From: Mobula hypostoma
Taxonomy: Eukaryota
Reading direction: 5' to 3'
Assembly: GCF_963921235.1 (NCBI RefSeq)
Contig: NC_086097.1
Location: 121,274,001-121,338,000, forward strand
Length of the DNA stretch: 64,000 nucleotides
Position 1 is the first letter of the stretch, and every line of letters starts with the position of its first letter. Both the position numbers and the translations under genes were made by a program. The notes below the pieces were generated by a model. That model had not been told where the DNA came from and made no database searches. It saw only the letters and a program-made list of their open reading frames with translations. Positions 5,231-64,000 of the stretch are shown here, piece after piece.

Positions 5231-7963
5231 TGTTAAGTTTTGTAACTCCAAAACAAAAAACTAATTTAAAGGAAAAAACGGGAGCAGAGAAATGTGAATC
5301 TTAGTTTTTTTTACGTTAAGCAAAGTATGCACCTATCACATGGTGGCATGATGACATATGCCATTTAGGTACTTTTACATATTACCCACAATGCATTATG
5401 AAGACAACTATGTAAGCTTATGTAAGCAATATATTGTTTAATCAAACAATATGTTTACAATATTACTAAAATATTACTGTTATATTAAATACTTGACACT
5501 CCTTCCTGCTTAGCTATAAACTCCAACTCAATATAGATGCATTTCAACTTATATACAGTACGTATACTATATATACAGAATACTACTGTATATAGATATC
5601 CACAGCATAGTAAATTTTAAGTTGTCCCATTCCTGCTTGATGATTTAATCACAGTGGACAATTTCTTACTCTTGTGGGAAATCGTCTTTCCTTAAAAGGG
5701 GGAACACTCTGTTTGGCAGGTGTGACTTGTGACTGTAAAACAACTTCAGGCTCTTCCGTCGTGGCCTTAGGAGTTGATTTTGAGACTGCAGGAAGTGGTT
5801 CTGAAAGCTTTGGCCGCATTTCATCTCTAGCAATTGCCTCTGGTCTCCTCAATTGATTGATGTGTCGTCTCCAGATGATATCAGGTGCAATTTCTGCTAT
5901 GTAGGAGAGTGGTCCAGTTCTGTCCTTAATCTGTCTGAGTACAATACCCACTTCTGATCAATTCTGTAGTCCCTCACCAGGACTGCTTGTCCAGGATTGA
6001 AACATCAAACATCTTTTTTCAAGGAACCTTCAATTTATCTCAATTGTGTCCTGCATCCTCCTTCTGCAATTAGGTTTGAGGAGATCCAAGAGTGAAGGCA
6101 AGGGACGGCTCAGGAACTGTGCAGCTAGTGAGTTGCTAGTTGAGAAGTATGCTGCGTTACGAAAGGCAAGGAGGAAATTGGTGAGCTTCTGATTCAGCGT
6201 TAGTGCAGTGCGTTCTGCTGACATTGTTTGCAGTGCATTCTCTAGACTCTGGAGAAAACTTCCTGCCGAGCCATTCGTAGCAGGATGGTACAGGTCAGAC
6301 CATAAGATATAGAAACAGAATTAGGCCATTTGTCCCATCAAATCTGTTCCGCCATTTCATCATGCCTGACCCTTTCACCCCAATCTCCTTCCTTCACCGT
6401 GCATCCCTTCATGCTCTGACTAATCAAGAATCTATCATTCTCTGCCTTAAACATACACAAAGACTTGGCCTCCACAGTAGCCAGTGGCAAAGAGTTCCAC
6501 AGATTCACCACTCTCTGGCTAACGAAATTCCTCCTCATCTCCAGTCTGAAAGGACACCCCTCGATTCTGAGGCTGTGTCCTCTGGTTATATAAGCCCTAA
6601 CCTCAGGAAACATACTCTCCACATCCACTCTATTGAAGCCTTTCAACATGCGATAGGTTTCAATGAGATCACCCCTCATTCTTCGGAATTGCAATGAGTA
6701 GAGGCCCAGAGCCATCAAATGCACCTCATATGACAATCCCAGAAACATTTTTGTGAACTTCCTTTGAACGCTCTCCAAAGTCTGCACATGCTTTTTCTGA
6801 TAAGGGGTCCAAAACTGCTCACAATACTCCAAGGGAGGTCTCACCAGTGCTTTATAAAGCCTCAACACTTCATCCTTGCTTTTATATTCTAGTCCTCTCA
6901 AAATGAATGCTAACATCACACTTGCCTTGCTCAGCACCGACTCAACCTGCAAATTCACCTTTAGGAAATCTGCACGAGGACTCCCAAGTCCCTTTGCACC
7001 TCAGAATTTTGAATTTTTTCCCATTTAGAAAGTAGTCTATACTTTTATTTCTTCTACCAAAGTGCATAACTATACACTTCCTGATGCTGTATTCCATCTG
7101 CCACTTCTTTGCCCATTCTTCTCATCTGCCTATGCCATGCTGTAGCTGATCTGCTTCCTCAAAACTACTTTCCCATCCACCTATCTTTGTATCGTCTGCC
7201 ATACTTGGCCAGAAAGCCATCAATTCTGTCATCCAAATCATTGACATATAACATAAAAAGAATCAGTCCCAACACAGACCCCTGTGGAACAACACTAGCC
7301 ACTGGCAACCACCCAGAAAAGGCTCCTTTTATTGCCACTCTTTGCCTCCTGCCAATGGGCTAATGCTCTACCCATGCCAGTATCATTCTAGTAATACCAT
7401 GAGCTCATAGCTTGTTAGGCAGCTTCATGTGGGGCACCTTGTCAAAGGCCTACTGAAAATCCAAGTACACAACATCAACTGTTATTCCTTAATCTATACT
7501 ACTTGTTATTTCTTCAAAGCATTCCAATTGATTAGACAGACAAGATTTTTCCTTGAGGAAACCATGCTGACTGCAGCCTACTTTATCATGTGCCTCCAAG
7601 TACCCCAAAATCACATCCTTAACAATTGACTCCAATATCTTGTCAATCATTGAAGTCAGACTAACTGGCCTATAATTTCCCTTCTGCCTCTTTCCCTTCT
7701 TTGGAGGGACGTTTACAATTTTCCATTCTTACAGGACCATGCCAGGCTGTGTTGATTCTTGAAAGATCATTACAAGTGGCTCTACAATCTCTTCAACCAC
7801 CTCTCTCAGAACCCGGGGTGTATACCATCTGGTCCAAGTGACTTATATAAATTCATGCCTTTCAGTTTCTCAAAATACCTCTCCCTAGTAATGGCAACTT
7901 CACACATTTCTGTCCCCGACACTCTCAAACATCTGGCATACTGCAAGTGTCTTCCACAGTGTA

Positions 7964-8630
7964 CAGGTTTTCCCCACCATCCAAAGGTAGGGTGTTCCTA
8001 TGAAATGGTTCGTAAGCTGGAATGTCGTGAAGTGAAGAAGCAATTACCATTTATTTATAGGAAAAATTTGTGAGCGTTCACAGACCCAAAAAATAACCTA
8101 CCAAATCATGTCAAATAGCACATAAAATTTCACGCAGTTGCTTCACGTTCAGTTCCAGGACGACTTCACTATTGGTCTGTTCGCTACTGCGTTTGATTTC
8201 GATTGTTATCCTTTCCTCTTCCAATTGCATCAGCTCTTCATCTATCAGTTCTTGGTCATGGGATGCCAAAACCTCTTCAACATCATCTTCGTCAACTTCC
8301 ACAAGCCAAACTCACTTTGTCCTTACTTCGTTCACCATGATCGAAACGCTTAATTATGTCTAGTTTTACGCTGTGTAACACCCTTATGAGCTCTTCTAGG
8401 CTTTTCCGATACTTTAGAACTCATCTTGCTAACGGCTGCTCACAGGCAGGTGTTTAAGCAACGCCGGCTAGAATGCAGTTCCAGGGGAGGAGCTTGGCTG
8501 CTCGGGGCGCGCGCTGCCTTTTCTCGTAACACTGAAAACACCTTCTGTTAGCGAAAACAGGTAACTAATGTAGGTCTTTTGTAACAGCGAGTTTTCGTAA
8601 AGCGAACATTTGAAAAGTGGGGGACACCTG
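7964..8630 (-). mobile_element. Tigger/pogo-like non-autonomous DNA transposon
   Basis: TA on both sides (7962-63, 8631-32); TIRs caggttttcccc.../...gggggacacctg; Tigger C-terminal remnant EDDVEEVLASHDQELIDEELMQLEEE. Confidence 0.85.
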
Positions 8631-9134
8631 TAGACTGATGCAAAATACTTATTCGGTTTGTCTGCCTTTTCCTTGTCCTCCATTTACAGCATCCAGTGCT
8701 CCGATATCTACTTTCAACTTTTTTTTACACTTGATGTATCTGAAGAAACGTTATGTATTCTCTTTAGTATTATTGGCTAGTCTCCCTTCATATTCCATCT
8801 TTTCCTTCATTATGATTTTACTAGTTGCCTTCTGTTGACTTTTAAAAGCTTCCCAATCCTCTAACTTCCCATTATTTTTTGCTGTATTATATTCTCTCTC
8901 TTTGCCTTTTATGTTGGCGTTGACTTCTCTTATCAGCCGCAGTTGTGTCATCCTGTCTTTAGAATACTTCTTCCTCTTTGGGATGTATAATTCGTGTGCC
9001 TTCCGAATTGCTCTCAGAAATTCCAGCTTTTGATGCTCTGCTGTCATCGCTGCCAGTGTTCTTTTCCAAATAATTTTGGCCAACTCCTCTCTCATGCCTC
9101 TGTAATTCAATTTACTCCACTGTAGTAATGATAC

Positions 9135-9985
9135 TGTTACGTATCCCGTAACTGTGTTGCCAAACCAGCAGAAATGGACCACTTAGTTGGAGTCTGGAAT
9201 ACTGGAACTAAGAAAGTTTTATTAAAGAAATAAGCAACACAGTACTCCAATCAAAAGGATATAAATGCAACAGTTTAGCAATGATAAAACACACATGTAC
9301 ACAGAACTAGAATAATAGAATCAATCAAGCTCTATCGCAGTCTAGGGGTAAATGATCAGTTTCAAGTGACGCAAAGTTCAGTTCAATTTAGTTCAGTTCA
9401 GTTCGCAGTAATCGTTGTTGTGCCATTGGGCGGGGAGAAGAGAGAGAGAGAACGAATGAATATGCAAATCGGATTCCAAACAGACCTTCGATATTCCTCG
9501 CAGTTAGCTTTCGGGCGAGCCCTTTGTAATGACTTCTGAGGTCACCGACTGTGACCCCTCCGTTCCAGATATGATCGTTCTTCTGCAGTGAACCCGGCAC
9601 CCAGGCAAGGGCGGACACACACACTAGGTTCCCGCCCGACCGTATGTTACCACCCTGTGTGTCTATGGCTGGTCCCACGACCAGACCTCCAAAAACTTCC
9701 ACCAACTTGTGAGGGGGGGGCGCACCGCTTCCAGGGTCTCGTTACCTCGTAATGTCGTGTGTCTGTTGCCTTAGCGAACCTGTCCCTTTTTATCCCCCTG
9801 CTGCGGTATCGCCTGTCCATCAAACTTCAAACAGTTCAGGGTTCAAAGCCACCGGTCTCTGACAATACTCGGAACCGTGTCTCCTTTCAGTAATCTCTCT
9901 CGTCTCTCTCTTATTAGCACCTTGCATGTTCCCCCATTGTCCTCTTATCGGCATCAATCTTCTGATAACTGGTTCTTTTGTCACA
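9135..9985 (-). mobile_element. Solo LTR (851 bp), 4-bp TSD ATAC
   Basis: TGT...ACA termini; atac at 9131-9134 and 9986-9989; minus-strand AATAAA near 9218; CpG-rich; inserted inside CR1. Confidence 0.85.
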
Positions 9986-10959
9986 ATACATCTGACTTTA
10001 GCCTCTCCTTCTCAAATTGCCAGGTGAATTCTTTCATTTTATGATGACTTACAACTAAGGGTTCCTTTAACTTAAGCTCTTCTAGTAATTCCAGTTCATT
10101 GCACAACATGCAATCCAGAATATGTCTTATTCCATTCATTTTCAGAAATGACTGAAACTGTTCCACCACAAGATGTGGTCCTTTATCATTAAGTGTTCTA
10201 TAACACTTCTCAACACATCATCTGTGTGTGAGGTTGTAGTGGAACCTATTATGAACACTTCCGGCTACTTTGTAGCTGCATACAGTACTACTAAATAATT
10301 TGTGCCTAGGAATGGTCTGGCAAAATCCACATGAATCCTCTATCAGGGCAATGCAGGCCAAACCCTCGGATGTAGAGACCCTGCTCTTGGTATCTTCTGA
10401 ATGTGTTTGCATCCCGAACAGTGCATGGCGAGCTGCTCGATCTACTGATCTATCCTGAGCCACCAGACAAAGCTTTAAGCCAATGCTTTAATTTTGACCA
10501 CGCTAGATAACAAGCACTTAGCTCCTCCAACACTTTAGCTCTCAGCTTGGATCATACAACAACTCACAATCCCCACATAAGGCAAACCCCGGCAAGGGCA
10601 AGTTCATCCCAGTGATGATAAAAATGGGGGAAGTGGAGTTTCTGCTGCACATTCCAGCCATTTTGGGTTGCCATGTAGATCTCACAGAGTATGGGGTCTT
10701 TTCTGGGTTCACTTTGGATCATCTCTGCTGAAATAGGGAGATGTTTGGCTTTCATTAGGCAAAATACATTCAGGGGATTGTCGTCTTTTATAAGTTTTTG
10801 GGCACTTCCTTTCACGGTCAGCAGGAAACTTTCAACAGCTGACCTAGAGGTAAATGTAGAAGTATGTCCAAAAGTGTCGACCAAATTGATTCATTAATTA
10901 CCCTTACAATTTGGCAGTGCATGTGCTGAGCGTTTTTTAAACTGTAAGTCACTGATCAG

Positions 10960-14894: not shown

Positions 14895-16441
14895 GAACAT
14901 AGAACATAGAATAGTACAGCACATTACAGGCCCTTCAGCCCACAATGTTGTGCCGACCCTCAAAACCTGCCTCCCATATAACCCCCCACCTTAAATTCCT
15001 CCATATACCTGTCTCTAGTAGTCTCTTAAACTTCACTAGTGTATCTGCCTCCACCACTGACTCAGGCAGTGCATTCCAGGCACCAACCACTCTCTGAGTA
15101 AAAAACCTTCCTCTAATATCCCCCTTGAACTTCCCACCCCTTACCTTAAAGCCATGTCCTCTTGTATTGAGCAGTGGTGCCCTGGGGAAGAGGCGCTGGC
15201 TATCCACTCTATCTATTCCTCTTATTATCTTGTACACCTCTATCAAGTCTCCTCTCATCCTCCTTCTCTCCAAAGAGTAAAGCCCTAGCTCCCTTAATCT
15301 CTGATCATAATCCATACTTTCTAAACCAGGCAGCATCCTGGTAAATCTCCTCTGTACCCTTTCCAATGCTTCCACATCCTTCCTATAGTGAGGCAACCAG
15401 AACTGGACACAGTACTCCAAGTGTGACCTAACCAGCGTTTTATAGAGCTGCATCATTACATCGTGACTCTTAAACTCTATCCCTCGACTTATGAAAGCTA
15501 ACACCCCATAAGCTTTCTTAACTACCCTATCCACCTGTGAGGCAACTTTCAGGGATCTGTGGACATGTACCCCGAGATCCCTCTGCTCCTCCACACTACC
15601 AAGTATCCTGCCATTTACTTTGTACTCTGCCTTGGAGTTTGTCCTTCCAAAATGTACCACCTCACACTCCTCCAGGTTGAACTCCATCTGCCACTTCTCA
15701 GCCCACTTCTGCAACCTATAATGTCTCTCTGCAATCTTCGACTATCCTCTACACTATCTACAACCCCACCAACCTTTGTGTCATCTGCAAACTTGCCAAC
15801 CCACCCTTCTACCCCCACATCCAGGTCGTTAATAAAAATCACGAAAAGTAGAGGTCCCAGAACAGATCCTTGTGGGACACTACTAGTCACAATCCTCCAA
15901 TATGAATGTACTCCCTCCACCATGACCCTTTGCTTTCTGCAGGCAAGCCAATTCTGAATCCACCTGGCCAAACTTCCCTGGATCCCATGCCTTCTGACTT
16001 TCTGAATAAACCTACCATGTGGAACCTTGTCAAATGCCTTACTAAAATCCATATAGATCACATCCACTGCACTACCCTCATCTATACGTCTGGTCACCTC
16101 CTCAAAGAACTCTATCAGGCTTGTTAGACACGATCTGCCCTTCAGAAAGCCATGTTGACTGTCCCTGATCAGACCATGATTCTCTAAATGCCCATAGATC
16201 CTATCTCTAAGAATCTTTTCCAACAGCCTTCCCACCACAGACGTAAGGCTCATTGGTCTATAATTACCCGGACTATCCCTACTACCTTTTTTGAACAAGG
16301 GGACAACATTTGCCTCCCTCCAATCCTCCGGTACCATTCCTGTGGACAACGAGGACATAAAGATCCTAGCCAGAGGCTCAGCAATCTCTTCCCTCGCCTC
16401 GTGGAGCAGCCTGGGAATATTCCATCAGGCCCCGGGGACTT
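14895..16441 (-). mobile_element. Young 5'-truncated CR1 LINE (RT domain) nested in an older + strand CR1 (about 14586-16580)
   Basis: ORFs 15615-16358 and 14935-15714 ([26 protein letters not shown]) with one frameshift; (tatgttc)n tail. Confidence 0.95.
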
Positions 16442-22500: not shown

Positions 22501-25500
22501 AATAAAATTAGACTCAAGTATTTCAATGAAACTTTCTAATACTCCATGCAGAGCTCTTTACACTGGAGAGGTGCTTAAGGTGTTTTAATCATTTATAACA
22601 GTAGAAAGATGAGAATTAGAATAATTACGGGCATATTTAATCAGACATGACACTCTATGTCTGTAACTTAGCATTCCTCTTGTGCTAGTTACTGCAGCAT
22701 GGCACAGCCGCTTCTGAGGAGAGCCATTTTATGAAATAATATTTTCCCTTGTGACCTCGACAAATATTGTATTATTCTTTTCATGTCTTGCTTTAAGAGT
22801 GGATTTCTTCAGGGAGGAAGTACAGATATTATAATAGAGTCCATGCACTCCACTACATAATCAGAAAAAAAATCACAATACAATCACAATTCCTTGGCAT
22901 AAGTTACTTGGAACTGTTCTTTTAAGTACTCCAAATAACATTATTGTGCTCTTGGCTTATTTTATGTTGTAATAAGGCAGACACAACGACTGTACACAAA
23001 ATTCTTCTACAAGGCAATTGCAACTGATAACTTAGAGGGAAGGTTTGCGAGTGCTGCTCAGGGGTGTTTAAACTTGAGTTACAGGGGGATGGGAACCAGA
23101 GCACCTGAGCAGATAGTGGTGTTGTTGTGGAGAAAGATGCTGGTAAACCTACATACAAAGTCAGGAATCAAAAGGTCAAGCATGGTGGGACTAATGTTCT
23201 GAGCTGCATATATTTCAATGCAAGGAGTATTACAGGAAAGGCGGAGAATTTAGATTATGGATCAGCATGTGGAATTATGACACTGTAGCCATTAATCAGA
23301 CTTAGTTGCAGGAGGGGCAGGGATAGCAGCTTAATATTCCAGAGTTTCATTGTTTCAGACCTGATAGTGTGGGAGGGATTAGAAGGGGAGAGGTGCCATT
23401 ACTAGTTAGGGAAAATGTTATAGCAGTATTCAGTCAAGGCAAACTGGACAGCTCATCTAGTTAGGCTTTATGGGTAGAACTGAGGAATAAGAAAGGTATG
23501 ACCACATTAATAGGATAATATTATAGACCACACAACAGTCTCTGGGGTTTAGAGGAGCAAATTGGTAGAGGTCGTAGACTGTTGCAAAAAACATAAGGTT
23601 ATGATAGAAGGTGATTTTAACTTTCCACATACTCACTGGAACTCCCATACTAGAAAAGGGTTGGATGGGAAAGAGTTTGTCAAATATGTTCAAGAAATTT
23701 TCCTTAATCAGTAAATAAATGTCCCGGCTAGAGAGAGGGTGATACTAGATCTCCTATAAGGAAATGAGACAGGGAAGGTGACAGAAGTTTGTGTAGGGGA
23801 ACACTTTGCATGTAATGACCATAATGCCATTAGTTTCCAGGTAATTATGGAAAAGGATAAATCTGGTCCTCAGGTTGAGATTCTAAACTGGAAAAAAAGT
23901 CAATTTTGATGGTATCAGAAAGGACCTGGCAAGTGTGGATTATGAAAGCTTATTTTCTGACAAAGGTGTACTTGGTAAGTGGGAGGCCTTCAGTAGTGAA
24001 ACTTTGAGAGGACAGAATTTATGTGTTCCTGTCAGAATAAAAGGCACAGAAAACAGGTTTTGGTTGCTCTAGCAGACAAGGTAAGGGAGAATCGTAAGGG
24101 CTTCAACAGATATATTAAGAACAAAAGAACAGCAAAGGACAAAATTGATCCTCTGGTAGATCTGAGTGGTCATTTATGCAAGGAGCTAAAAGAGGTGAGG
24201 AAGATCTTAAATGGATTTTTTGCATCTGTATTTACTTGGGAGACAGACACAGAGTCTACAGAAGTGAGGCAAAGCAGCAGCGAGGTCATGAACCCTGTGC
24301 TGATTACAGAGGAGGAAGTGATTGCTGTCTTGAGCAAATTAGGTTGAATAAATCCACAGAGCATGACAAGATGTTCCCTTGGATCCTGAGGGAGGCTATT
24401 GCGGAAATTGCAGGGGCCCTAGCAGAGATATTTAAAACTTCCTTAGCCACAGGTAAGGTGCCGGAGGATGGGAGGATAACTAATGTTGTTCAGTTCTTTA
24501 AGAAAGGCTCCAAGAATATGCCAGGAAATTATAGGCCAATGAGCCTGACATCAGTAATGGGAAATGTATTGGAAGGTATTCTAAAAGACCAGATATGTAA
24601 GTCTCTGGATAGACAGAGACTGATTTTGGATAGTCAACATAGCTTTGTGTGTAGTAAGTCACGTCTAACCAATCTTACAGATTTTTCAAGGAAGTTAGCA
24701 GGAAAGTTAATGAAGGAAGGCAGTGGATGATGTCTACATAAACTTTAACAAGGCCTTTGACAAGGTTCTGCATGGGAGATTTCAAGAAGTTTCAATGTCT
24801 TGGCATTCAAGATGAGATAGTAAATTGGATTGGACTTTGGCTTTGTGGGAGAAGCCAAAGTGTTATATTTAATACTTCAGTAATATTTGAATAATCCTTT
24901 ATATATATTGGTATTAAGTATATATTAAGTATTTTTGTTCATTTAAATAATTCATATTGGGTTATATGAAATTAAGGTATTATGGTACATGAAAAGCATA
25001 CGTCAACATACTGCAGCGTGATATATGTGTGGTTCCTTTAAAGTAAACTCAAAGTTAGACTCGCAATTTGAACCTTAGTGTTTACTTTTGAATTAGTTTA
25101 ATGATTTGAAGTTACAAAATGTAATGGTGGTGATGAGGTGTTTCTAAAAACAAACCTGAAACAGCTACCAACCTGTTGAAGTGCGGTGAGATGGGTGAGT
25201 TAATAAAAGCACAGTGAGTAACGGTTGAGTTAAAAAGAAAGCGGCAAAGTATGTGCAGAGAGTCGTTAAAAAAGTCAGAAAAGAGAAGATTTCACAAGTT
25301 CATAAAGAGTGGGTACTGGGTGACATGAATCATAAAAGAAAGCAGAAATGGCTGGGTACATCAGAACTTATGATGTGTTTGATTGCTTAAAGGGTAACTG
25401 GCTTATGTATACTGAGCTAACCAAACAGTATTTTGAAGCAAATGAAAGAGTCAAAGAGAAATAAGTACCAGTTTTGATGAGTGCATTGGATTTTGTTGAT

Positions 25501-26519
25501 ATTGGGAAAGCAATGCAGGAATATTTAGAACTGAAGGCATTGCTGATTGAAAAATGCTTTTGGTTTCATAACTGGAATAAAAAGGAAGGGGGATCCATTT
25601 CAGTGTATGTGGCTGAATTGAAGAAATTATCTGACCGTTATCTGTTCAATGATGGGCTTAATAATGCACTGAGAGATTGTTTAGTTTGTGGAATCTTACA
25701 AGAAAGCATTCAAAAATAGCTTCTAACTAAAGCACAGTCTACATTTAAAAGAGCAGTAGAAATAGCTGTATCAATGGAAAATGCAGACAGAAACACAAAT
25801 GAGTTGCAGTCAGCAATACAAGTGAATATGAACAAAGTTGAAACATCTAAACAGAAACTGCCTGGCCAAACAAATTGTGTTACCATTGTGGCAGGGGCTC
25901 ATATACACCTGGCCAATGAAAATTTAAAGATGAAACTTGGAGAAAATTCAACGAAGTAGGATATGTATGAAGAGAATGTCAGATAGACAAAAATAAATGG
26001 ACTGCACAGAGAAAAGAAAAAGGTAAAAATTCAAGTTGCAGTTTATAAAAGAGCACTAATCTGCATGCTATTGATGATAGTGATGAGAGTTACACAGGAT
26101 TGGTGGGTACCCTTGAGATTTACAACATGAATACAAGCAATAGACAGGCAATATGGCTTACACCAAAAGTGAATGGTAAATTAATTTAAATGGAATTGGA
26201 TACTGACTGGGCTGTTTCAGTTATTTCCACCAGATGAGTTTCAATGGCATTTCAGAGATACTAAACTGAAGCCTGCAGATATTCAACTGAGAACTTATAC
26301 TGGAGAAAAGATAACTCATGTGGGAATGACATTCGTAACAGTGAAATACAACAGCCAACAAGCCACATTGGGCTTATAGTTGGTAAAAACAGGAGGACCA
26401 TCATTGTGGGTTGTAAGTGCCTGAGACAACTATAACTTGATTGGAGGCCCATCCAATCTGCATACTACGTCCTTGCAATGAATCCACCTGAAAGTAAATC
26501 AAGAAAGGTAGTGGATGAT

Positions 26520-27200
26520 GCCTCAACTGTCTCCATGCCGAACACCATAAACTGATACTAAAAAAGAGGACAAACAGATATCAGTGCCAACCTCTGTGCC
26601 TCTGGCTGCAAAGAATATTGGACCAAGGAAGGACCATGCTGCCAGAGGAAATGTGTAAGTGAAGAAAGCAGTGGTCCAACCACAACAGTTTTTGTAGGAA
26701 ACATATCTGAGCAAGCTTCTGATATGTTAATCAGGCAGTTACTTTTTAGGCTGGAAGAGAGTTCATGGAGCGTCAGGAAAGTTGCAAGCATTCAGCTTTT
26801 GTGAGTAGAAAAGAATCAAAATCTACTCTGCATGCATAAAGTTTATTGCATGAACTTCAAGTAGGAGACAAAAAGCTGTGAGTAAGAGTAGATGCAAAGA
26901 TCAACACCCAGCTGGATGAACAGAGGGCCAAAAAGAAAGGAGCCAATGGAGACGCGAAAACAGAGGATTTGTCAGATGATGTTGTGGATGAGGAAACCAA
27001 GAGGAGAGATCAGATCATAAAGGGAGCAATAGAAGGATTAATAAGAAAATACTCCAGTGAAGTAAAGGGACCTCTCCAAGATCAAGATGCACAAACTAGT
27101 AAAAGGACAGAAGAGGTGGAGAGAAAGGTGTGAAACAGAAAAGGACACAGGAAAGAAAATGAAAGGAATCAAAGCAGATCCAGAGTGAGTAAAAAAAAGA
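26520..27200 (+). pseudogene. RBM25: Processed (intronless) RBM25 fragment covering the RRM and downstream region, degraded
   Basis: Translates as GPRKDH...SGPTTTVFVGNISEQASDMLIRQLL...WKRVHGASGKLQAF.FCE...LLHELQVGDKKL.VRVDAK...QLDE..AKKK...DEETKRRDQIIKGAIEGLIRKYSSE, which I recognise as vertebrate RBM25. Stops, frameshifts, no introns. Confidence 0.92.
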
Positions 27201-27512
27201 AGAACTTTCTGAACCATTTCCTGCAGTCTCTGACTCAACTCCTACAAGCACCACCAAGATTGTTTCACAGCCACAAGCCTCACCTTACCTGCCATGTACA
27301 GAGATCTACCTTCTCAGGAAATACTTTATCCTGCAAGAGTAAGAAATCCTCCACAGTGATTAAAACTTTAGGCCTCAATGAGACAATTTAAAATTTGGCT
27401 ATGCTGAGGATGTCTGTATTTTGTAATTGTATTATATAATATAGTTTATATAACTGAGATGCATTCTCTATTGAGTTGGAGTTTATAGCTAAGTAGAGAG
27501 GACTGTTATGTA

Positions 27513-28674
27513 ACATAGAAACATCGAAACATAGAAAGCCAACAGCACAATACAGGCCCTTCGGCCCACAAAGCTAGAAATTACCTAGAAATTACCGAGG
27601 GTTACCCATAGCCCTCTATTTTTCTGAGCTCCATGTACCTGTCCAGGAGTCTCTTAAGAGGCCCTTTCACATCCGCCTCCACCACCATCGCCGGCAGCCC
27701 ATTCCACACACTCACCACTCTCTGTGTGAAAAACTTACCCCTGACATCTCCTCTGTACCTACTTCCAAGCACCTTAAAACTGTGCCCTCTTGTGCTAGCC
27801 ATTTCAGCCCGGGAAGAAAGCTTCTGATTATCCACACGATCAATGCCTCTCATCATCTTATATACCTCTTTAGGTCACCTCTCCTCCTCCGTCACTCCAA
27901 GGAAAAAAGGCTGAGTTCACTCAACCTATTCTCATAAGGCATGCTCCCCAATCCAGGCAACATCCTTGTAAATCTCCTCTGCACCCTTTCTATGGTTTCC
28001 ACATCCTTCCTTTAGTGATGCGACTAGAATTGAGCACCAGTACTCCAAGCGGGGTCTGACCAGGGCCCCATATAGCTGCAATATTACCTCTTGGCTCCTA
28101 AACTCAATCCCACGATTGATGAAGGCCAAAGCAGCAGTAGTAATGTCAACCTGCACAGCAGCGCTGAGTGTCCTATGGACTCAGACCCCAAGATCACTCT
28201 GATCCTCCACACTGTCTTACCATTAATACTATATTCTGATATGAACCACCTCCCACTTATTTGGGTTGAACTCCATCTGCCACTTCTCAGCCCAGTTTTG
28301 CATCCTATCAATGTCCCACTGTTACCTCTGATATCCCTCCACACTATCCACAACACCCCCAACCTTTGCGTCATCACCAAATTTTCTAACCCATCCCTCC
28401 ACTTCTTCATCCAGATCATTTATAAAAATCACGAAGAGTAGGGGTCCCAGAACAGATCCCTCAGGCACACTATTGGTCACCGGCCTCCATGCAGAATATG
28501 ACCCGTCTACAACCACTCTTTGCATTCTGTGGGCAAGCCAGTTCTGGATCCACAAAGCAATGTCTCCTTGGATCCCATGTCTCTTTACTTTCTCAATAAT
28601 CCTTGCATGGTGTACCTTGTCAAATGCCTTGCTGAAATCCAAATACACTACATCTATTGTTCTACCTTCATCAA
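27513..28674 (-). mobile_element. CR1 LINE inserted into the Gypsy 3' LTR
   Basis: RT ORFs 28322-28648 and 27602-27856; (tatgtttc)n tail. Confidence 0.9.
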
Positions 28675-31128
28675 TTTAATATTTCACTAATATTTGAGTA
28701 ATCTTGTACATATATTGATAGATTAAGCATTCATCTAAATAATTTATTATGAATTATATGTATAAATACGTGAATGGCATACATTATCACGCTACCACAT
28801 AATACGTGCACACCTCACTTAAAGTAAACGTGAAGTTAGACTCACATTTCAGACTCCCGTGTTTTCCCTTGAATTAGTTTAATGTTTTGAAGTTACAAAA
28901 TATAACAAGAGAGTGGCTACAGATGGTATGGATCTTTGAGAGTAGCTTGCGACTCATGGTGTGCTGCAGGGACCAGTGCTGGGTCCGTTGTTGTTTGGCA
29001 TCCCTATCAACGATCTGGATGATAATGTGGTTAACTGAATCAGCAAGTTTGTGGAATAACACCAACAATGGGGGTGCAGTGGACAGCAAGGCAGATTAAC
29101 AGAGCTTGCATTCAAATCTGTACCAGCTGGAAAAATGGGCTGATTAGTGGCAGATAGAATTTAATACAGACAAGTGAGAAATTGCACCAGGGTGGGTGTC
29201 AAATGGTGGGCGGTAGGGCACTGAGGATTGTAGTAAAACAAAGGGATCTGGGAATACTGATCCATAGTTCCCTGAAAATGGTGTCACAGGTAGATAAGGT
29301 CGTAAAGAAAACCTTTAGCACATTGGCCTTCATAAATCAATGAATTGAGTACAGGAGTTGGGATGTTCTTTTGAACTTGTAAAAGATGCTCATGAGGCCT
29401 AATTTGGAGTATTGTGTGCCATTTTCATCACCTGTTACAGGCAAGATGTAAATAAGATTGAAAGAGCACGGAGGAAATTTACAAGTGTATTTCTGGGACC
29501 TGAGAACCTGAGTTATTGGGAAAGGTTGAACAGTCTAGGACTTCGTTCCCTAGGGTGTAGAGGAACGACAGGAGATTTTACAGAGGTAGATAAAATTATT
29601 GAGATGTAGAGTCTTTGAAAGTTACACCCTTTGGCCCACCTCGTTCATGCTGAGCCATTTAAACTCCGTGATTTTTAAACTATTCAATATAACTATACTG
29701 TAATTAATTATTTTTTTTTCTCTATATTGTGTATTGCATTGAACTGCTGCTGCTAATTTAACAAATTTCACATCACATGTTAATGATAACAAACCTGATT
29801 CTGATTCTGATACTCCCATCGACCTGCACCTGGAACACAGCCCTCTATGCCTCTACCATCCATGTACCCATCCAAACTTCTCTTAAATGTTGAAATTGAG
29901 CTCGCATACATCACTTGTGCAGGCAGCCGATTCCACTCTCACACAGTACTCTGAGCAAAGAAGTTTCCCCCATGTTCTCCTTAAAATTTTCACCTTTCAC
30001 CCTTAACCCATGACCTCTAGTTGTTGTCCCACCCAATCTCAGTGGTAAATGCATGTTTGCATTTGCGCTGTCTACACCCTTCATCATTTTGTATTACCTC
30101 TATCAAATCTCCTCTCAATCTTCTATGTTCCAAGGAGTAAAGCCCTAACTGATTCAATCTTTCCATATAAAGCCCCGGCAACATCCTTGTAAATTTTCTC
30201 TGTACTCTTTCTACCTTATTTACATCTTTCCTGGAGGTAGGTGAACAAAACTGCACACCTACCTACAGGAAAGATGCAAATAAGATTGAAAGAATACAGA
30301 GAAAACTTACAAGGATGTTGCCGGGGAGTTATATGGAAAGATTGAATAGATTAGGACCTTATGAGGGTTATAAATAAAAGCAGTCTTTTTTGACTGAGGT
30401 TGCGTGAGACCAGAGCTAGAGGTCATGAGTTCAGGGTGAAAGGTGAAATGTTGAAAGGGAGCATGAGAGAGAACTTCTTCACTCAGAGGGGGGTGAGAGG
30501 GTGCTGAGATACTGCAGAAGTGGTGGATGCGGGTTTGATTTCAACATTTAAGAGAAGTTTGGTTAAATAAATGAAAGGGAGGTGTGTGAAAGGCTACGGT
30601 CCAGATGAGGGTCAATGGGACTGGACGGGTTAATAGGCAGCATTAGATGAGCCAAAGGTCCTGTTTCTGTGCTCTAGTGTTCTATGACTCTATGACTGTT
30701 CTAACAAATTGAATAAATTTCATGTTAAATTATATCAGGATTAGTTTTGCTTGTTACTTTCAGTACTTTTGAACAAATATTTGGAATCCTTGGTGATTAA
30801 TAAATGCCCAAAAAGGATTCACATATTGATTGATTGCAAACATAAAATATTCAGTGGTAAGTGCACTTTGCAGTTTGTTACCAATTAGCAGAGAACAGCA
30901 AGTCTGAAAGGTCAATCTTTGGTCTGTGTTGGATTGGTCAAAATCCACTAATATCCATCAAGGAAAGCAATTTGCCACGCTGAAACAAAACACGACACCG
31001 TTAGCTCTCAGTTGCCCTTTGAAAAGGCAGAGTAAACACATATTTGTATCAAAAATGTTATCAAGTTTCAAAGCTCTGAGTTTAAATTAATTATCATGGT
31101 ATGTATACCGAGTAAACCGTGATATTAA

Positions 31129-39939: not shown

Positions 39940-41410
39940 TCCGTTCATCTCTCGGAGGGGCAGGGTTACAGACACTAACACAGCCAGCTGGCTGGATCCT
40001 CCCCCGCCTCTCTTCTGCATGACGATTTTACTAATCGCAAGATGGATACCACTGCTTGCCACCCCACCAGCAGCTGAGCCACTAGTGAACCAGACTTGTT
40101 ACTTCTCCTCATGGGTCAGATCGTCCATGGCTTACAACACTGTACAGGTGTGGAGTCAATTGCAGGGGTGCAGTGGTCATTATCGGGCAGGGACATAACC
40201 TGTTCATGGAGGTGGGTCACCTCATCAGAACATTTCTTTTCCCTGTCTCCGATATAATATTTCCATTCATCGACTGAAGACCATGGGGCATGGCCCTCCT
40301 TGGAAGTCGCATTGTTGGACTTCTCCCACTGCATGACAGGAAGGTGCAGTTGCAGCACAACTAGCTCAGAGGCTGTCTGATGTTCAGTGGCCAGGAGGGC
40401 CCAATAGCAGGTTAACCACTGCCTCTTGAAGGGGGTGCATCAGGTCATCACTTCAGGGAAAGTTTGTACCGAAAACCCCAAAAGGGATGCAATACCCTTC
40501 AACACCTGCCACAGGCTCCACTCAGACACTCTAGGTGTAGCTGAAACCTATAGTTCAAAGGGCACCTCACCCTGTCTAACGGTTAATGGGAGAGCCTGTT
40601 GCACTGCCTGCCTGGTAGTCTCAAAGTCCACTTGCTGTTCAGGACCCCATTGGAAAACAGTCTTTTTTCAGGAAGCTTGGTATGGGAGTGTAATATCATG
40701 GTCAGATGGGAAAGAAGATGGAACCAACACCCAAAGAGCCCACAAAGCGTTTCATTTCCTTTTTGGAGACGGGGACCACGGCATTCAAGATCTTGCGCTT
40801 GGCCTTAACAGGTATCTCCCAATGCCCAGAATGCCACTGTATAAAACATTCTGACTGGGGCCCTGTATCTTATCGGGGTTGATAGACCAACCCCACTCTC
40901 TGAGGGAGGTAACCACTTCAACCAATGCCTGCCTCACTATGTTCCGTAAGGACCCCTGTAAGAGCAGCTTGTCTATATAGTGGGATGTGGAGGTGCTAGG
41001 GTCCAGAGGTATCCCCTGTAAGTCTTGAGCTATCGTACTGTGACACAATGTGGGAATGTGTACATACTCCAGTGGGAGGCGGCAACAGGTTTACTGCCGA
41101 CTCTCCCATGTGTATACGAGCTGGTCTTGTGACACTCCATGGGTGGCATTCTCAGGGTGTTATTAACCACATGTTGGGATGACAGCCCCCCTCCTCCAGG
41201 GCACCCATCTCTCTATTAGATAGATGCTGTACAGTAAGCCCCCCCCCCCATCCCATATCCTCAATCACCATGTGGCCAGAGGCTCTCCTGCCTTCTGCCT
41301 GTACAAATCCCTCAATCCCACCAGTTCTTTGGTGGAGAACAATGGGAGAAAGCTATTGCATCCTTCAAATTGGCCAATCAAAAGCGCTTTCGAACGGCAG
41401 GTAAGTTAAC
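39940..41410 (-). mobile_element. Class III (ERV-L-like) endogenous retrovirus remnant (gag piece, RT, tether)
   Basis: LYRQKAGEPLATWWLRIWD (ERV-L gag-like); CH..IAQDL...HYID...WGWSINPDKIQGP; FQWGPEQQ; WSLWQ; YWALL. Confidence 0.75.
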
Positions 41411-42616: not shown

Positions 42617-43740
42617 AACATAGAACCGTAGAAAACCCACAGCACGATACAGGCCCTTCAGCTCACAAAGCTGTGCCGAACCTGTCCAAGAGTCTCTTAA
42701 AAGGCCCCGTCGTATCCGCCTCCACCACCGTTGCCAGCAGCCCATTCCACACACTCACCACTCTCTGGGTAAAAAACTTACCCCTGACATCTCTTCTGTA
42801 CCTACGTCCAAGCACCTTCGAACTGTGCCCTCTCGTGCTAGCCATTTCAGCCCTGGGAAAAATCCTCTGACTATCCACACGATCAATGCCTCTCATCATC
42901 TTATACACCTCTATCAGGTCAACTCTCATCCTCCGTCACTCCAAGGAAAAAAGGCCAAGCTAACTCAACCTATTCTCATAAGGCATACTCTCCAATCCAG
43001 GCAACATCCTTGTAAATCTCCTCTGCACTCCTTCTATGGTTTCCACATCCTTCCTATAGTGAGGCGACCAGAACTGAGCACAATACCCCAAGTGGGGTCT
43101 GACCAGGGTCCTATATAGCTGCAACATTACCTCTCAGCTACTAAACTCAATCCCATGATTGATGAAGGCCAATGCACCATATGCCTTCTTAACCACAGAG
43201 TCAACCAGTGCAGCAGCCTTGAGTGTCCTATGGATTCGGAACCCAAGATCCCTTTGATCATCCACACTGCCAAGAGTCTTACTATTAATGCTATATTCTG
43301 TATTTGACCTACCAAAATGAACCACCTCACACTTATCTGAGTTGAACTCCATCTGCCACTTCTCAGCCCAGTTTTGCATCCTATCAACGTCCCACTGTAA
43401 CTTCTGACGGCCCTCCACACTATCCACAACACCCCCAACCTTTGTGTCTTCAGCAAATTTACTAACCCCTCCCACTACTTCCTCATCCAGGTCATTTATA
43501 AAAATCACAAAGAGTAGAGGTCCCAGAACAGATCCCTGAGGCACACCACTGGTGACCAACCTCCATGCAGAATATAACCCGTCTATAACCACTTTTTGCC
43601 CTCTGTGGACAAGCCAGTTCTGGATCCACAAAGCAATGTCCCCTTCAATCCCATGCCTCCTTACTTTCTCAATAAGCCTTGCATGGGGTACCTTGTCAAA
43701 TGCCTTGCTGAAATCCATGTACACTACATCTACTGCTCTA
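42617..43740 (-). mobile_element. CR1 LINE RT/3' part
   Basis: ORFs 43134-43772 and 42663-42929; same subfamily as 27513-28674. Confidence 0.9.
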
Positions 43741-45249: not shown

Positions 45250-45910
45250 GATAGAACATTACAGCACAGTACAGGCCCTTCGGTCCATGGTGTTGTGCTG
45301 ACCCTTTAACCTACTCTAAGATCACTATAACCCTTCCCTCCTACATAACCCTCCATTTTTCTATCATCCATGTGACTATCTAAGACTTCCTTAAATTCCC
45401 TGAATGTATCTGCCTCTACCAGCACCTCAGTCAGGGCGTTCCTTGCACTCACCACCCTCTGTGTGTAAAAAAAATACCTCTCACGTTCCCCTGCACTTCC
45501 CTTCCAACACTTTAAAATTCCACCCTTTTTCTATTTGCCCTTTCTGCTTTGGAAAAAAAGTATCTGGCTTATCATCTTATCATCTTGTACACCTCTATCA
45601 AGTCACCACTCATCGTCCTTCACTCCAGAGAGAAAAGCCCCAGCTCGCTCAGCCTATCCTCATACAACATGCTCTCTAATCCAGGCAACATCCTGGTAAA
45701 TATCCTCCGCACCCTCTCCAAAACTTCCACATTTTTCTTACAATGGCACGACTAGAACTGAACACAATACTCCAAGCATGGTCTAACCAGAGTTTTATAG
45801 AGCCTCAACATTACCTCGTGGCTCTTGAACTCAATCCCCTGACTAATGAAGGCCAGCACACCATATGCCTTCTTAACCACCCTAACAACTTGCATGGCAA
45901 ATTTGAGAAG
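45250..45910 (-). mobile_element. CR1 3' fragment
   Basis: Reverse-orientation CR1 tail and ORF2 C-terminus. Confidence 0.75.
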
Positions 45911-62647: not shown

Positions 62648-64000
62648 ATGGAACAGGCCCTGAGACCAGAAAAATTAGACCTCAATCCGCAAACACCTGA
62701 AGCTGGAAACGCATTTGAACTCTGGCTGGCCTGCTTCGAAGCGTATCTAGAGGAGATTAAAGCGACCGACCCCGTAGCGAAGCGCAGAGTTCTACTCTCC
62801 AGGGTCAGTCCACGGGTCTACTCGATGATCAGAGACCAGCCGAACTACGACGGTGCAATGAACACACTCAAAAGACAATACCTGCGGCCGATAAACAGCG
62901 TCTATGCTCGCCACCGTTTAGCAACACGGCAACAACGCCCCGGGGAATCGAGTGCTGAGTTCGTCCAGGCCCTACGGACGCTCGTGCGAGCCTGCAATTG
63001 CCAGGAGCTGACGGTGGCACAGCATGCAGAACTCCTAGTGAGAGACGCCTTCGTCATGGGGACCAGGTCAGTGTACGTGTGCCAGCGGCTGCTGGAAAAA
63101 GCCGATCTTACCCTAAATTCGGCAATCGAGCTGGCTGATACGTTGGAGGCTGCTCTGCATAACTCCGAGGTTCTCCAGGCACGCGATCCCCCGATGGCCT
63201 CGTGGGCACCGCAGACCCCGCAACCCGCCGGCGAATCGACCTCGGCTGCCGCCAGTCGTGAGTCCGCGAAGTGCTACTTCTGCGGACTGGAGAAGCACCC
63301 CCGGAAATGCTGCGCGGCTCAACAAGCTACCTGCTCCAGCTGCGAAAAGAAGGGCCACTTCTCCAAGGTCTGTAAATCAAAACCGCGAGCGGGATCGAGC
63401 AGCGCCGCGTGCGAGACGTGGGGGTCGCCATCTTCCCTGCACGCCACCACCACGTGCGAGACGTGGGGGTTGCCATCTTGGCTGCCGCCATCTTCCCTGC
63501 ACGCCACCACCACATGCGAGACATGGGGGTCGCCATCTTGGCTGCCGCCATCTTCCCTGCACGCCACCACCACATGCGAGACATGGGGGCGGCCATCTTG
63601 ATCGGCGCCACCTCCCACTGCCTACGACCAACGGGTGCTCACGCGGCACCCCACCACGCCGGACCAAGACAGCGACCCCACCCTGGCTTCCGTGACCCTC
63701 GACCAAAGCGCTCCCCACCAGCTCGCAAGGTCAATGATGGACATCCTGGTGGAGGGGCACAGGACAAGCTGCCTGTTTGACACAGGCAGCACGGAGAGTT
63801 TTATCCACCCAGCCACGGTGCAGCATTGTGGACTCATGATATGGCCGGTAAGTCGGAGGGTCACCATGGCCTCCAGGTCGCATACAACAGACATCCGGGG
63901 GGGGGTTGTGTAGTGACACTAGTGGTGCAGGGCACAGAATATCGGGACTTTACGTTACTGGTCTTGCCTCAACTGTGTGCCCCTGTGCTGCTGGGGTTGG
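62648..64000 (+). mobile_element. Gypsy gag-protease (runs off the window), premature stop at 63599-63601
   Basis: YARHRLATRQQRPGES; CYFCG...H...C and CSSCEKKGH..VC knuckles; protease CLFDTGSTESFI in the same frame after the stop. Confidence 0.92.

Follow-up and report, generated by a model that had tools for sequence, protein, structure and literature searches.

A decayed, non-autonomous Ty3/Gypsy-type LTR family in Mobula hypostoma with spliced host RBM25 sequence in place of reverse transcriptase, RNase H and integrase

Anatomy of the element

The window, a 64,000-nt stretch of the Mobula hypostoma genome, contains at 24861–28907 an LTR element set inside a LINE and bounded by an imperfect 4-bp target duplication. 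In agreement with the earlier note on this DNA, the element comprises an LTR, gag, protease, an RBM25 segment, a polypurine tract (PPT) and a second LTR, arranged as follows.

24857–24860, plus strand: AAAG, 5′ target-site duplication, within the LINE reverse transcriptase (RT) ORF that the element interrupts; the flanks rejoin as AGC CAA AGA GTG GCT (SQRVA)
24861–25126 (3′ end approximate), plus strand: 5′ LTR, starting TGTTAT, its end blurred through mutation; 76.5% identical to the 3′ LTR
25128–25138, plus strand: motif resembling a primer-binding site (PBS), TGGTGATGAGG, from an alignment of 8 copies
25348–25990, plus strand: gag remnant with a MAGYI start and two CCHC knuckles; 47–48% identical to residues 1–206 of P0007 and P0009
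26100–26440, plus strand: aspartic protease (PR) remnant; DTG decayed to DTD at 26199–26207
26441–26528, plus strand: PR–RT linker of pol, ending DDA(T/S)T; aligns with '...STE.KL.K.LEQAAPV' of P0008, P0009 and P0012
26529–26577, plus strand: alternative 48-nt RBM25 exon (host C1:99832633–99832586), beginning at the first base past the acceptor ttttcag
26578–26743, plus strand: RBM25 exon B (RRM start), last 4 nt absent; 89% to host 99829162–99828994
26744–26788, plus strand: RBM25 exon C, first 13 nt absent; 87% to host
26789–26950, plus strand: RBM25 exon D; 85% to host 99824415–99824255
26951–27114, plus strand: RBM25 exon E, last ~13 nt absent; 87% to host
27115–27200, plus strand: remnants of exon G (RE/RD-rich), then ~30 nt from the start of exon H, by host exon matches
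27201–27371, plus strand: C-terminal ~55 codons of pol (LSEPFPAVS...YPARVRNPP..); 73.5% to window 5807–5490
27372–27503, plus strand: 3′ untranslated stretch with polypurine tract AAGTAGAGAGGAC (~27488–27503), from an alignment of 12 copies
27504–27512, plus strand: first 9 nt of the 3′ LTR, TGTTATGTA, by comparison with other copies
27513–28673, minus strand: nested 5′-truncated LINE fragment, RT-coding, missing from other copies and outside the family
28674–28907, plus strand: remaining 3′ LTR, ending ATAACA, from the LTR alignment
28908–28911, plus strand: 3′ target-site duplication AGAG, one mismatch, from the LINE flank comparison

The paired LTRs have ends of the TG..CA type (TGTTAT...ATAACA) and are accompanied by a short duplication. 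The flanks of the element read ...SQ/RVATDG across the insertion point, where the LINE RT ORF is interrupted, and an uninterrupted LINE copy fits the 4-bp duplication exactly. A conserved TGG-initiated motif lies beside the 5′ LTR in 8 copies, several of them reading TGGCGACGAGG at this position, and a purine tract lies beside the 3′ LTR in 12; we regard the former as a putative PBS. The gag remnant, with its CCHC region at ~25878–25985, holds stops and a deletion of ~20 codons.

From gag through protease to the PR–RT linker, which supplies the final element-derived bases ahead of the 5′ junction (up to 26528), the element matches the Gag-Pol proteins P0007–P0013 at 40–48% identity. In these proteins Pfam recognises RT, RNase H and integrase domains, the order being PR–RT–RH–IN with integrase last. 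Inside the element no match to RT, RNase H or integrase was found, nor any pol match at 26531–27200, which bears out the proposal that RBM25 sits in place of RT, RNase H and the integrase core. The 'integrase tail' proposed downstream is indeed derived from pol, but it consists of the last ~55 codons, from past the integrase domain, and is read out of the pol frame when entered from RBM25.

Nine nucleotides of the 3′ LTR precede the nested LINE fragment (1.16 kb, 86% identical to window 42680–43740); 16 of 29 other copies pass straight from position 27512 to 28674. With its stops, frameshifts, internal deletions and nested LINE, the window copy is dead, as had been concluded from the letters alone.

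The RBM25 insert and its host gene

The host RBM25 gene occupies G000:C1:99791418–99840648 on the minus strand, 21 Mb from the window. Five of its exons are matched at 77–89% by window 26529–27114, in sense orientation and with the introns gone, and all six of the best named protein matches of the insert (6/6) are RBM25 or RBM25-like. Remnants of two further exons follow (27101–27200); the first bases of this match, from 27101, coincide with low-complexity sequence closing exon E. The 13-nt loss in exon C is private to the window copy, the bases being present in other copies at their loose ends at 26744, and exon F with most of exon G is deleted relative to long-form copies.

In the long-form copies L044–L047 the alternative exon, exons B–G and ~32 nt of exon H follow one another in order, and these eight host exons are joined exactly at AG/GT splice sites. 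The host gene retains the introns, five of about 1.7–6.1 kb lying between exons B and G. The idea of an intronless, sense-oriented RBM25 mRNA segment within an LTR element has thereby been substantiated: a multi-exon copy without introns is flanked by parts of one LTR element and extends well past a single exon. The captured insert is ~1.07 kb of spliced RBM25, consisting of the 48-nt alternative exon, the RRM exons and RE/RD-rich exons without the PWI domain, and the window copy is a deletion derivative of the long form. A Pfam search recovered RRM_1 in P0001 (E=2.5e-10) and, as a sub-threshold match only, in copy L003 (E=0.0077); in the window copy it was not found. Neither a poly(A) tail nor a target duplication directly flanks the insert, as previously noted, and the A-run at 27190–27198 is decayed exon H sequence.

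A multi-copy family with autonomous relatives

A 22-mer spanning the 5′ junction, with up to 3 mismatches permitted, occurs at 1,510 places (761+749) in the 3.48-Gb genome, against 1 (1+0) for the control, and a 22-mer across the F/G exon junction at 271 places against 22; these copy counts represent short-pattern matches and first-look candidates. The ratio of forms deleted inside RBM25 to the long form is ~6 to 1 (1,510 vs 271 places). All 29 fetched loci (29/29) share the layout gag–PR–RBM25–tail–LTR, and both breakpoints are common to all copies examined. Other copies have flanks and duplications of their own, such as a perfect 5-bp GGTTC at L019 and AAACT/AATCT at L008; those examined lack the common flanks that segmental duplicates would show. 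These separate insertions, together with the junction count, indicate secondary retroposition of the chimera, and the multi-copy family postulated earlier is real. In three other organisms, contigs cover the whole chimera.

Three autonomous elements (L038–L040) are 68–80% identical to the family up to window 26520–26525 and unrelated beyond. The autonomous relatives carry the same tail (73.5%), the PPT and the LTR (69% over 261 nt). The RBM25 family, lacking RT, RNase H and integrase of its own, shares its LTR and cis signals with them; the evidence supports a multi-copy non-autonomous Ty3/Gypsy-type family in which LTR, putative PBS, gag, PR and PPT have been kept.

The two junctions and a proposed origin

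At the 5′ junction (marked here by a slash) the host reads ccccttttcag/GTCTCCATG. The family reads ...ACAACT/GTCTCCATG or close variants in all nine aligned copies (9/9), and the autonomous elements L038–L040 read ...GCA/GTGTTCAAGG at the same site (3/3). The RBM25 side of the junction opens with the first base of an exon, preceded in the host gene by a 20-nt polypyrimidine tract and CAG, and microhomology is confined to GT (2 nt). Here a GT of the element meets a host splice acceptor, the element GT being a candidate donor. In the three autonomous copies this candidate (GCA/GTGTTC) is weak, and the 3–4 nt ahead of the junction differ, with AACT in the family versus AGCA or CA in the autonomous elements. 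Because it joins a host acceptor to a site where autonomous relatives carry GT, the 5′ junction appears to stem from a spliced read-through transcript.

The 3′ junction falls in the middle of exon H. There the host exon reads ...AAAAGGAGAAGAAAAGGGATAGG, eight autonomous copies read ...TTAGAGAAGAAAGGTGTCCAGAGC and the family reads ...AAAAGGAGAAGAAAGGTGTCCAGAGC, with 9–11 nt of microhomology. A mid-exon position with such microhomology points to an RT template switch. The earlier attribution of the capture to template switching therefore appears to hold for the 3′ side only, the 5′ side looking like a splice product.

We propose, with a probability of roughly 85%, that this decayed non-autonomous Ty3/Gypsy-type family, with spliced host RBM25 mRNA in place of RT, RNase H and integrase, originated as follows. 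An autonomous element in sense orientation, within RBM25 or upstream of it, would have given rise to a read-through transcript, in which splicing joined the GT in the protease–RT linker to the alternative exon's acceptor while the downstream introns were removed normally. The chimeric RNA would then have been packaged alongside normal element RNA. During minus-strand synthesis RT may have left the element RNA in the pol C-terminal region and resumed on exon H of its chimeric partner, at the shared GAGAAGAAA(G)G stretch (also given as the GAGAAGAAAGG stretch in autonomous elements). The product would have retained both LTRs, PBS, gag, protease and PPT and encoded an in-frame Gag–PR–linker–RBM25 fusion. 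Autonomous relatives sharing its LTRs would have mobilised it in trans, and a single old burst would have brought it to at least 1,500 copies; internally deleted forms, the window copy among them, would subsequently have become the majority.

A rival account, following the model of Tan et al. 2016, derives both junctions from RT template switching between element RNA and co-packaged ordinary RBM25 mRNA, with the 5′ switch reaching the exon boundary by chance, or with the 48-nt exon being a first exon at which RT ran off the template end. It accommodates the clear microhomology at the 3′ junction and the GT common to host and element at the 5′ junction, and microsimilarity-dependent switches are described at both fusion points in the cases of Tan et al. 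(PMC5131818). No progenitor insertion (gag, PR, LTR or pol match) was found across 40 kb fetched from the host gene (C1:99802001–99842000), which include the intron upstream of the alternative exon, and this also speaks for two switches. The 5′ junction, however, lies exactly at the first base past a 20-nt polypyrimidine tract and CAG, which would mark an internal exon; a random switch would land on that base at about 1 of several hundred positions, and its microhomology is just 2 nt compared with 9–11 nt at the other junction. We therefore consider a double switch unlikely. A progenitor insertion, for its part, need not have reached fixation.

Reading frame, neutral decay and other explanations

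A Gag–PR–RRM fusion had been suggested, and a single frame does cross the protease–RBM25 junction in 29 of the 34 copies analysed, which, as the best-scoring matches, may show below-average decay. In L003, L010, L014 and L021 an ORF extends from PR into RBM25, and 4 of 54 scored RBM25 matches are free of stops. None of the 166 matches in a protein search, whatever the species, is annotated as a protease–RBM25 fusion; query coverage is 75% at most and no protease domain is listed. Between copies omega comes to 0.69, while shifted frames give 0.66 and 0.71, and codon-position distances are 0.167, 0.172 and 0.180. This neutral copy-to-copy divergence implies no measurable selection on the fusion; the sampled copies are all decaying neutrally. 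The LTR-pair K2P distance is 0.29 in the window copy (238 aligned nt), with a median of 0.23 in nine other copies.

These data bear on whether RBM25 was more than a passenger, a Gag–PR–RBM25 fusion (RRM and RE/RD-rich) having been selected and having brought the chimera to high numbers by aiding RNA binding, packaging or localisation. The shared frame, the few copies with RBM25 still open and the at least 1,510 junction-bearing copies count in its favour. Copy-to-copy divergence, however, lacks codon-position bias, constraint on the host gene accounts for the excess of third-position change seen when host and copies are compared, and the predominance of RBM25-deleted forms argues that the full insert was unneeded; the interval from capture to burst was too short for selection to be measured. 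We regard such selection as improbable. The RE/RD region is speckle-targeting. It is similarly doubtful, and offered as speculation, that capture was adaptive for the element, the fusion giving the chimeric RNA an edge over its autonomous parent through better packaging, nuclear localisation or evasion of host RNA surveillance, and that the thousand-plus sense and antisense copies have since fed small-RNA pathways able to touch the host RBM25 transcript.

A single LINE-made processed RBM25 pseudogene, landing once in an already deleted element to give an accidental chimera, is rejected as extremely improbable: LINEs abound around and inside the element and an A-rich run lies at 27190–27198, but that run aligns with exon H, the insert has neither flanking target duplication nor poly(A), and the same junction recurs at 1,510 places with both breakpoints common to every copy examined.

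Significance

The family provides an unusually clean natural record of host-gene transduction by a retrotransposon, in which both breakpoints are readable to the base and one genome still contains the donor gene as well as the autonomous parent lineage. This suggests that the path taken by acute transforming retroviruses is likewise open to an env-less element of Gypsy type in a vertebrate germline. Such a chimera can exceed earlier few-copy cases by two to three orders of magnitude. For annotation, over a thousand scattered RRM-coding fragments may be labelled 'RBM25-like' by gene predictors, and RBM25-like matches in the genomes of Mobula hypostoma and its relatives should be repeat-masked.

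Comparison with known systems

The kind of event is already known, as LTR-mediated retroposition and oncogene-type transduction; a literature search found no published description of an RBM25-carrying LTR family. Oncogene transduction is reportedly (Swain and Coffin 1992) a matter of a read-through transcript, splicing and then nonhomologous recombination. A review (PMC4276931) covers retroviral read-through with splicing, the capture of oncogenes and dependence on helpers. The RBM25 family resembles these systems in its 5′ fusion at a host splice acceptor, its lost introns, its 3′ fusion inside an exon and its loss of replication genes, which would create the need for a helper. It differs in being of Ty3/Gypsy type, lacking env and any known natural splice donor, and in its cargo, a fragment of a splicing factor rather than a growth gene, spread through the germline at high copy number.

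LTR-mediated retroposition yielding chimeric retrocopies in animals was described by Tan et al. 2016, Genome Res (PMC5131818). As in the cases set out there, an intronless host gene copy lies between discontinuous parts of an LTR retrotransposon, in sense and in frame, with microsimilarity at a fusion point, and the chimera can serve as a non-autonomous element that is retroposed again. Unlike those cases, with one to a few insertion sites, the RBM25 family has at least 1,510 junction places, and its 5′ junction, at a splice acceptor with 2 nt shared, is better fitted by splicing. Maize Bs1, as presented by Tan et al. (PMC5131818), is likewise a non-autonomous LTR element with host gene fragments whose copies all have the same switch points; unlike the RBM25 family, it is a plant element with parts of several genes and one to five copies per genome.

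Crocodilian endogenous retroviruses that captured nectin3 and KIT-ligand host mRNA, described by Chong et al. 2014 (PMC4299795), similarly gained host mRNA at the cost of a viral gene and left several copies of the chimera. As described there, these chimeras are retroviruses in few copies (six nectin3 insertions) with ORFs reported to be under purifying selection, whereas the RBM25 family is Gypsy-type, numbers thousands of copies and is in neutral decay.

Structure and insertion site of the RBM25-carrying element

The paired LTRs claimed in the earlier note are real: a repeat finder recovered 24986–25124 against 28767–28905, and full alignment gave 76.5% identity over 238 positions (K2P 0.29), with TGTTAT at the LTR start and ATAACA at the finish. 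The internal coding parts were delimited by comparison with the Gag-Pol polyproteins P0007–P0013, themselves found with a better-preserved family copy as query.

Features of the element and of its autonomous-type relative (window coordinates)
from 25348: gag, starting MAGYI and running through two CCHC knuckles; match to P0007–P0013
26199–26207: aspartic protease motif, DTG decayed to DTD; match to P0007–P0013
ending at 26528: protease–RT linker; match to P0007–P0013
from 27201: last ~55 codons of pol (LSEPFPAVS...YPARVRNPP), then a short untranslated stretch and the polypurine tract (PPT)
27513–28673, minus strand: nested 5'-truncated LINE fragment, 9 nt inside the 3' LTR
5231–10806, minus strand: autonomous-type relative of the same lineage, with integrase, pol tail, PPT and LTR
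10110–10806, minus strand: N-terminal part of the relative's integrase
5655–6290, minus strand: C-terminal end of the relative's integrase, and its pol tail

In the same comparison RT, RNase H and integrase found no match within the element (24861–28907), as the earlier note had claimed. Read-through translations of the window copy yielded no RRM, gag or protease family in Pfam, decay being too advanced here, and the analysis turned to better-preserved copies and named homologues. The nested LINE fragment, which the earlier note did not list, is lacking in 16 of 29 other family copies, where position 27512 directly adjoins 28674.

The element inserted into the reverse-transcriptase ORF of a LINE, whose flanks ...AGCCAAAG and AGAGAGTGGCT rejoin to read SQRVA. 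An uninterrupted copy of this target LINE, lying in a host RBM25 intron, exactly fits a 4-bp duplication (AAAG/AGAG, one mismatch). One LINE family accounts for several copies in the window: 24500–24860 plus 28912–29300 (the target), 27513–28673 (nested in the 3' LTR and 86% identical to 42680–43740), 14999–16085, 42680–43740 and 45344–45855.

The insert derives from spliced RBM25 mRNA

An 83-residue open stretch at 26882–27130 matched RBM25 in six of six protein matches and nothing else, the best being the Heptranchias perlo 'RBM25-like isoform X1' (P0001) at 77% identity. When the whole gar RBM25 protein was searched against the 3.48-Gb genome, all 54 scored matches were element copies (81,827 first-look candidates, a number inflated by RE/RD repeats). 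Searching the genome for the Pfam PWI domain led to an SRRM1-like gene rather than to RBM25; the PWI-domain exons of that gene lie at G000:C76:29408335–29411380 (loci L031 and L032). A query restricted to the C-terminal portion of gar RBM25 located host RBM25 on the minus strand at C1:99791418–99802552, at a distance of 21 Mb from the window, and its upstream exons were mapped by tblastn across the following 40 kb.

Window 26529–27114 corresponds to five host RBM25 exons at 77–89% identity, and all its joints match host AG...GT exon boundaries. The five host introns from exon B to exon G measure about 1.7–6.1 kb; the window copy keeps four B–G joints, the F/G joint having gone together with exon F. 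The insert therefore extends beyond one exon, and the captured spliced RBM25 mRNA proposed in the earlier note is borne out by five joined exons. Upstream of exon B, a 48-nt in-frame alternative RBM25 exon (G000:C1:99832633–99832586, locus L037) encodes (VS)MLYTMNRCPTEGKQ, a product identical to the N-terminus of P0001; judged from sequence, it is a putative internal exon. At its C-terminal end, P0001 apparently reads on from exon E into the intron that follows.

A multi-copy family with long and deleted forms

The segment 26440–27260, used as query, gave 3,162 first-look genome candidates and 40 scored full matches at 76–83% identity, many across both junctions. A common layout of LTR, gag, protease, RBM25, tail and LTR was present in 29 of 29 fetched loci, complete elements measuring ~2.9–3.0 kb. 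A 22-mer spanning the 5' junction (up to 3 mismatches) occurred at 1,510 places (761 + 749) on many contigs, against 1 for the reversed-pattern control. Copies also have differing flanks and their own duplications, such as a perfect GGTTC in L019 and AAACT/AATCT in L008. The multi-copy family envisaged earlier thus exists; read-depth figures were not taken as copy numbers.

In four long-form copies, chosen because they extend furthest over gar RBM25, eight host exons follow one another in order: the alternative exon, B, C, D, E, F, G and H, the last represented by its first ~32 nt. Their insert covers approximately gar residues 72–406, comprising the RRM and the RE/RD-rich region without the PWI domain. 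Compared with them, the window copy is a deletion derivative: it has lost the last part of exon E, all of F and the beginning of G, as well as a further ~190 nt within G and 17 nt at the B/C joint. An F/G-joint 22-mer was found at 271 places (control 22); set against the 1,510 5'-junction places, long forms therefore make up about one sixth of junction-bearing copies. Later insertions were seen in individual copies: L046 (C55:46942700–46944700) has a GATA-type microsatellite with foreign sequence just past the 3' junction, and exon G/H of L014 is interrupted by another insertion.

Autonomous relatives and other elements in the window

A protease–RT query recovered many autonomous-type elements (34,337 candidates, 137 scored). 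Three of the six fetched (L038–L040) share 68–80% DNA identity with the RBM25 family across gag and protease until window 26520–26525, beyond which they continue into RT. The relative at 5231–10806 shares the family's pol tail (73.5% identity over 325 nt), a PPT and a 3' LTR (5231–5490; 69% over 261 nt); it is interrupted at ~6290–10110, and no RT was found in it. Since autonomous relatives share tail, PPT and LTR, helpers with matching cis signals exist, and the RBM25 family was probably mobilised by them in trans.

Two further matches lie in the window. Another gag-like ORF containing CCHC knuckles (62720–63550, plus strand), only 27–30% identical to P0007–P0013, belongs to a different Gypsy-type lineage. 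A weak RT-like match at 40833–41081 (minus strand; P0013 residues 558–635, E = 0.002) is unrelated to the RBM25 element.

Junctions and the route of capture

At the 5' junction (slash, break) the host reads ...ctccctcccccttttcag/GTCTCCATGCTG..., the family ...GATGATGCCACAACT/GTCTCCATGC... or near variants in nine of nine aligned copies, and autonomous copies ...GATGATGCCACAGCA/GTGTTCAAGG (DDATAVFKDG). The alignment therefore places the break exactly where a host exon begins, at its first base behind a textbook acceptor; on the element side it falls immediately upstream of a GT. Splicing of a read-through element–RBM25 transcript would give such a junction. A chance template switch would have had to strike one base in several hundred. 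Against splicing, the candidate donor is weak, and the family does not agree with the three autonomous copies in the 3–4 nt upstream of the junction. In the 40 kb of host RBM25 examined, no progenitor insertion remains.

Microhomology-guided RT template switches are described by Tan et al. 2016 (PMC5131818). At the 3' junction host exon H reads ...AGAGAAAAGCCGAGAAAAGGAGAAGAAAAGGGATAGG, eight autonomous copies ...TTGTTAGAGAAGAAAGGTGTCCAGAGCTGTCAGAACC and the family ...AAGCCAAGAAAAGGAGAAGAAAGGTGTCCAGAGCTGTCAGAGCC, placing the break ~32 nt into exon H, inside 9–11 shared bases; this pattern is probably the signature of such a switch. Together, a spliced 5' and a switched 3' junction would fit the route by which retroviruses classically transduce genes, a model of which is reportedly due to Swain and Coffin in 1992. 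A review (PMC4276931) describes read-through combined with splicing, as well as capture and the dependence on helpers.

Coding state, selection and age

A single reading frame runs over the linker–RBM25 junction in 29 of 34 copies (15 residues either side), upholding the in-frame protease–RBM25 fusion that the earlier note had suggested, and L003, L010, L014 and L021 retain ORFs of 160–281 residues from protease into RBM25. Where RBM25 gives way to the pol tail, its frame is not that of pol. The shared frame and these ORFs, in single copies rather than a consensus, thus give a Gag-PR-linker-RBM25 fusion as the original product.

Copy-versus-copy comparisons (561 pairs, 34 copies) gave a dN/dS of 0.69 in the true frame and 0.66 and 0.71 in the two shifted frames, with distances of 0.167, 0.172 and 0.180 at codon positions 1, 2 and 3; stops occupy 57 of 6,698 aligned codons. 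The copies are under neutral decay. Host-versus-copy distances were 0.108, 0.102 and 0.184, with omega 0.34 in frame and 0.87 and 0.91 in shifted frames. The 0.34 might suggest selection on the element, but the shifted frames together with the copy-versus-copy values show that it reflects constraint on the host gene; the third-position excess arises because the host gene has been constrained since capture. These data neither demonstrate nor exclude selection on the fusion.

The third-position excess between host and copies approximates one copy's private divergence (~0.085–0.09), and the burst therefore followed closely after capture. LTR pairs range from K2P 0.175 to 0.29; an age of roughly 45–100 million years for the burst would follow from an assumed, unmeasured rate of 1–2 × 10^-9 substitutions per site per year. 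Contigs from runs of three other organisms (B, C and D) gave 10,033–13,942 matches (at least 80%) across 26300–27512, including contigs that bridge the 5' junction, their variant at 26523 lying 48 nt or more from the contig ends. Run X18, guessed to be RNA and possibly DNA, gave 392 matching contigs.

Comparison with known systems

A protein search with the fusion ORF found no annotated protease–RBM25 fusion in other species, which is no evidence of absence, and in the literature searched, Repbase-type repeat libraries lying outside it, no LTR element carrying RBM25 is described. The family carries practical weight for the annotation of 'RBM25-like' genes. Its kind is already known: oncogene transduction is kindred, as is mRNA capture by crocodilian ERVs (PMC4299795), and Tan et al. 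2016 (PMC5131818) present similar chimeric LTR-mediated retrocopies able to retropose again. The family is new in its cargo, RBM25, and in its host group. Also new are the base-level evidence that splicing probably made the 5' junction of an env-less Gypsy-type element, and the copy number: Bs1 of maize, as cited in Tan et al. 2016, has one to five copies, whereas the RBM25 family has at least 1,510.
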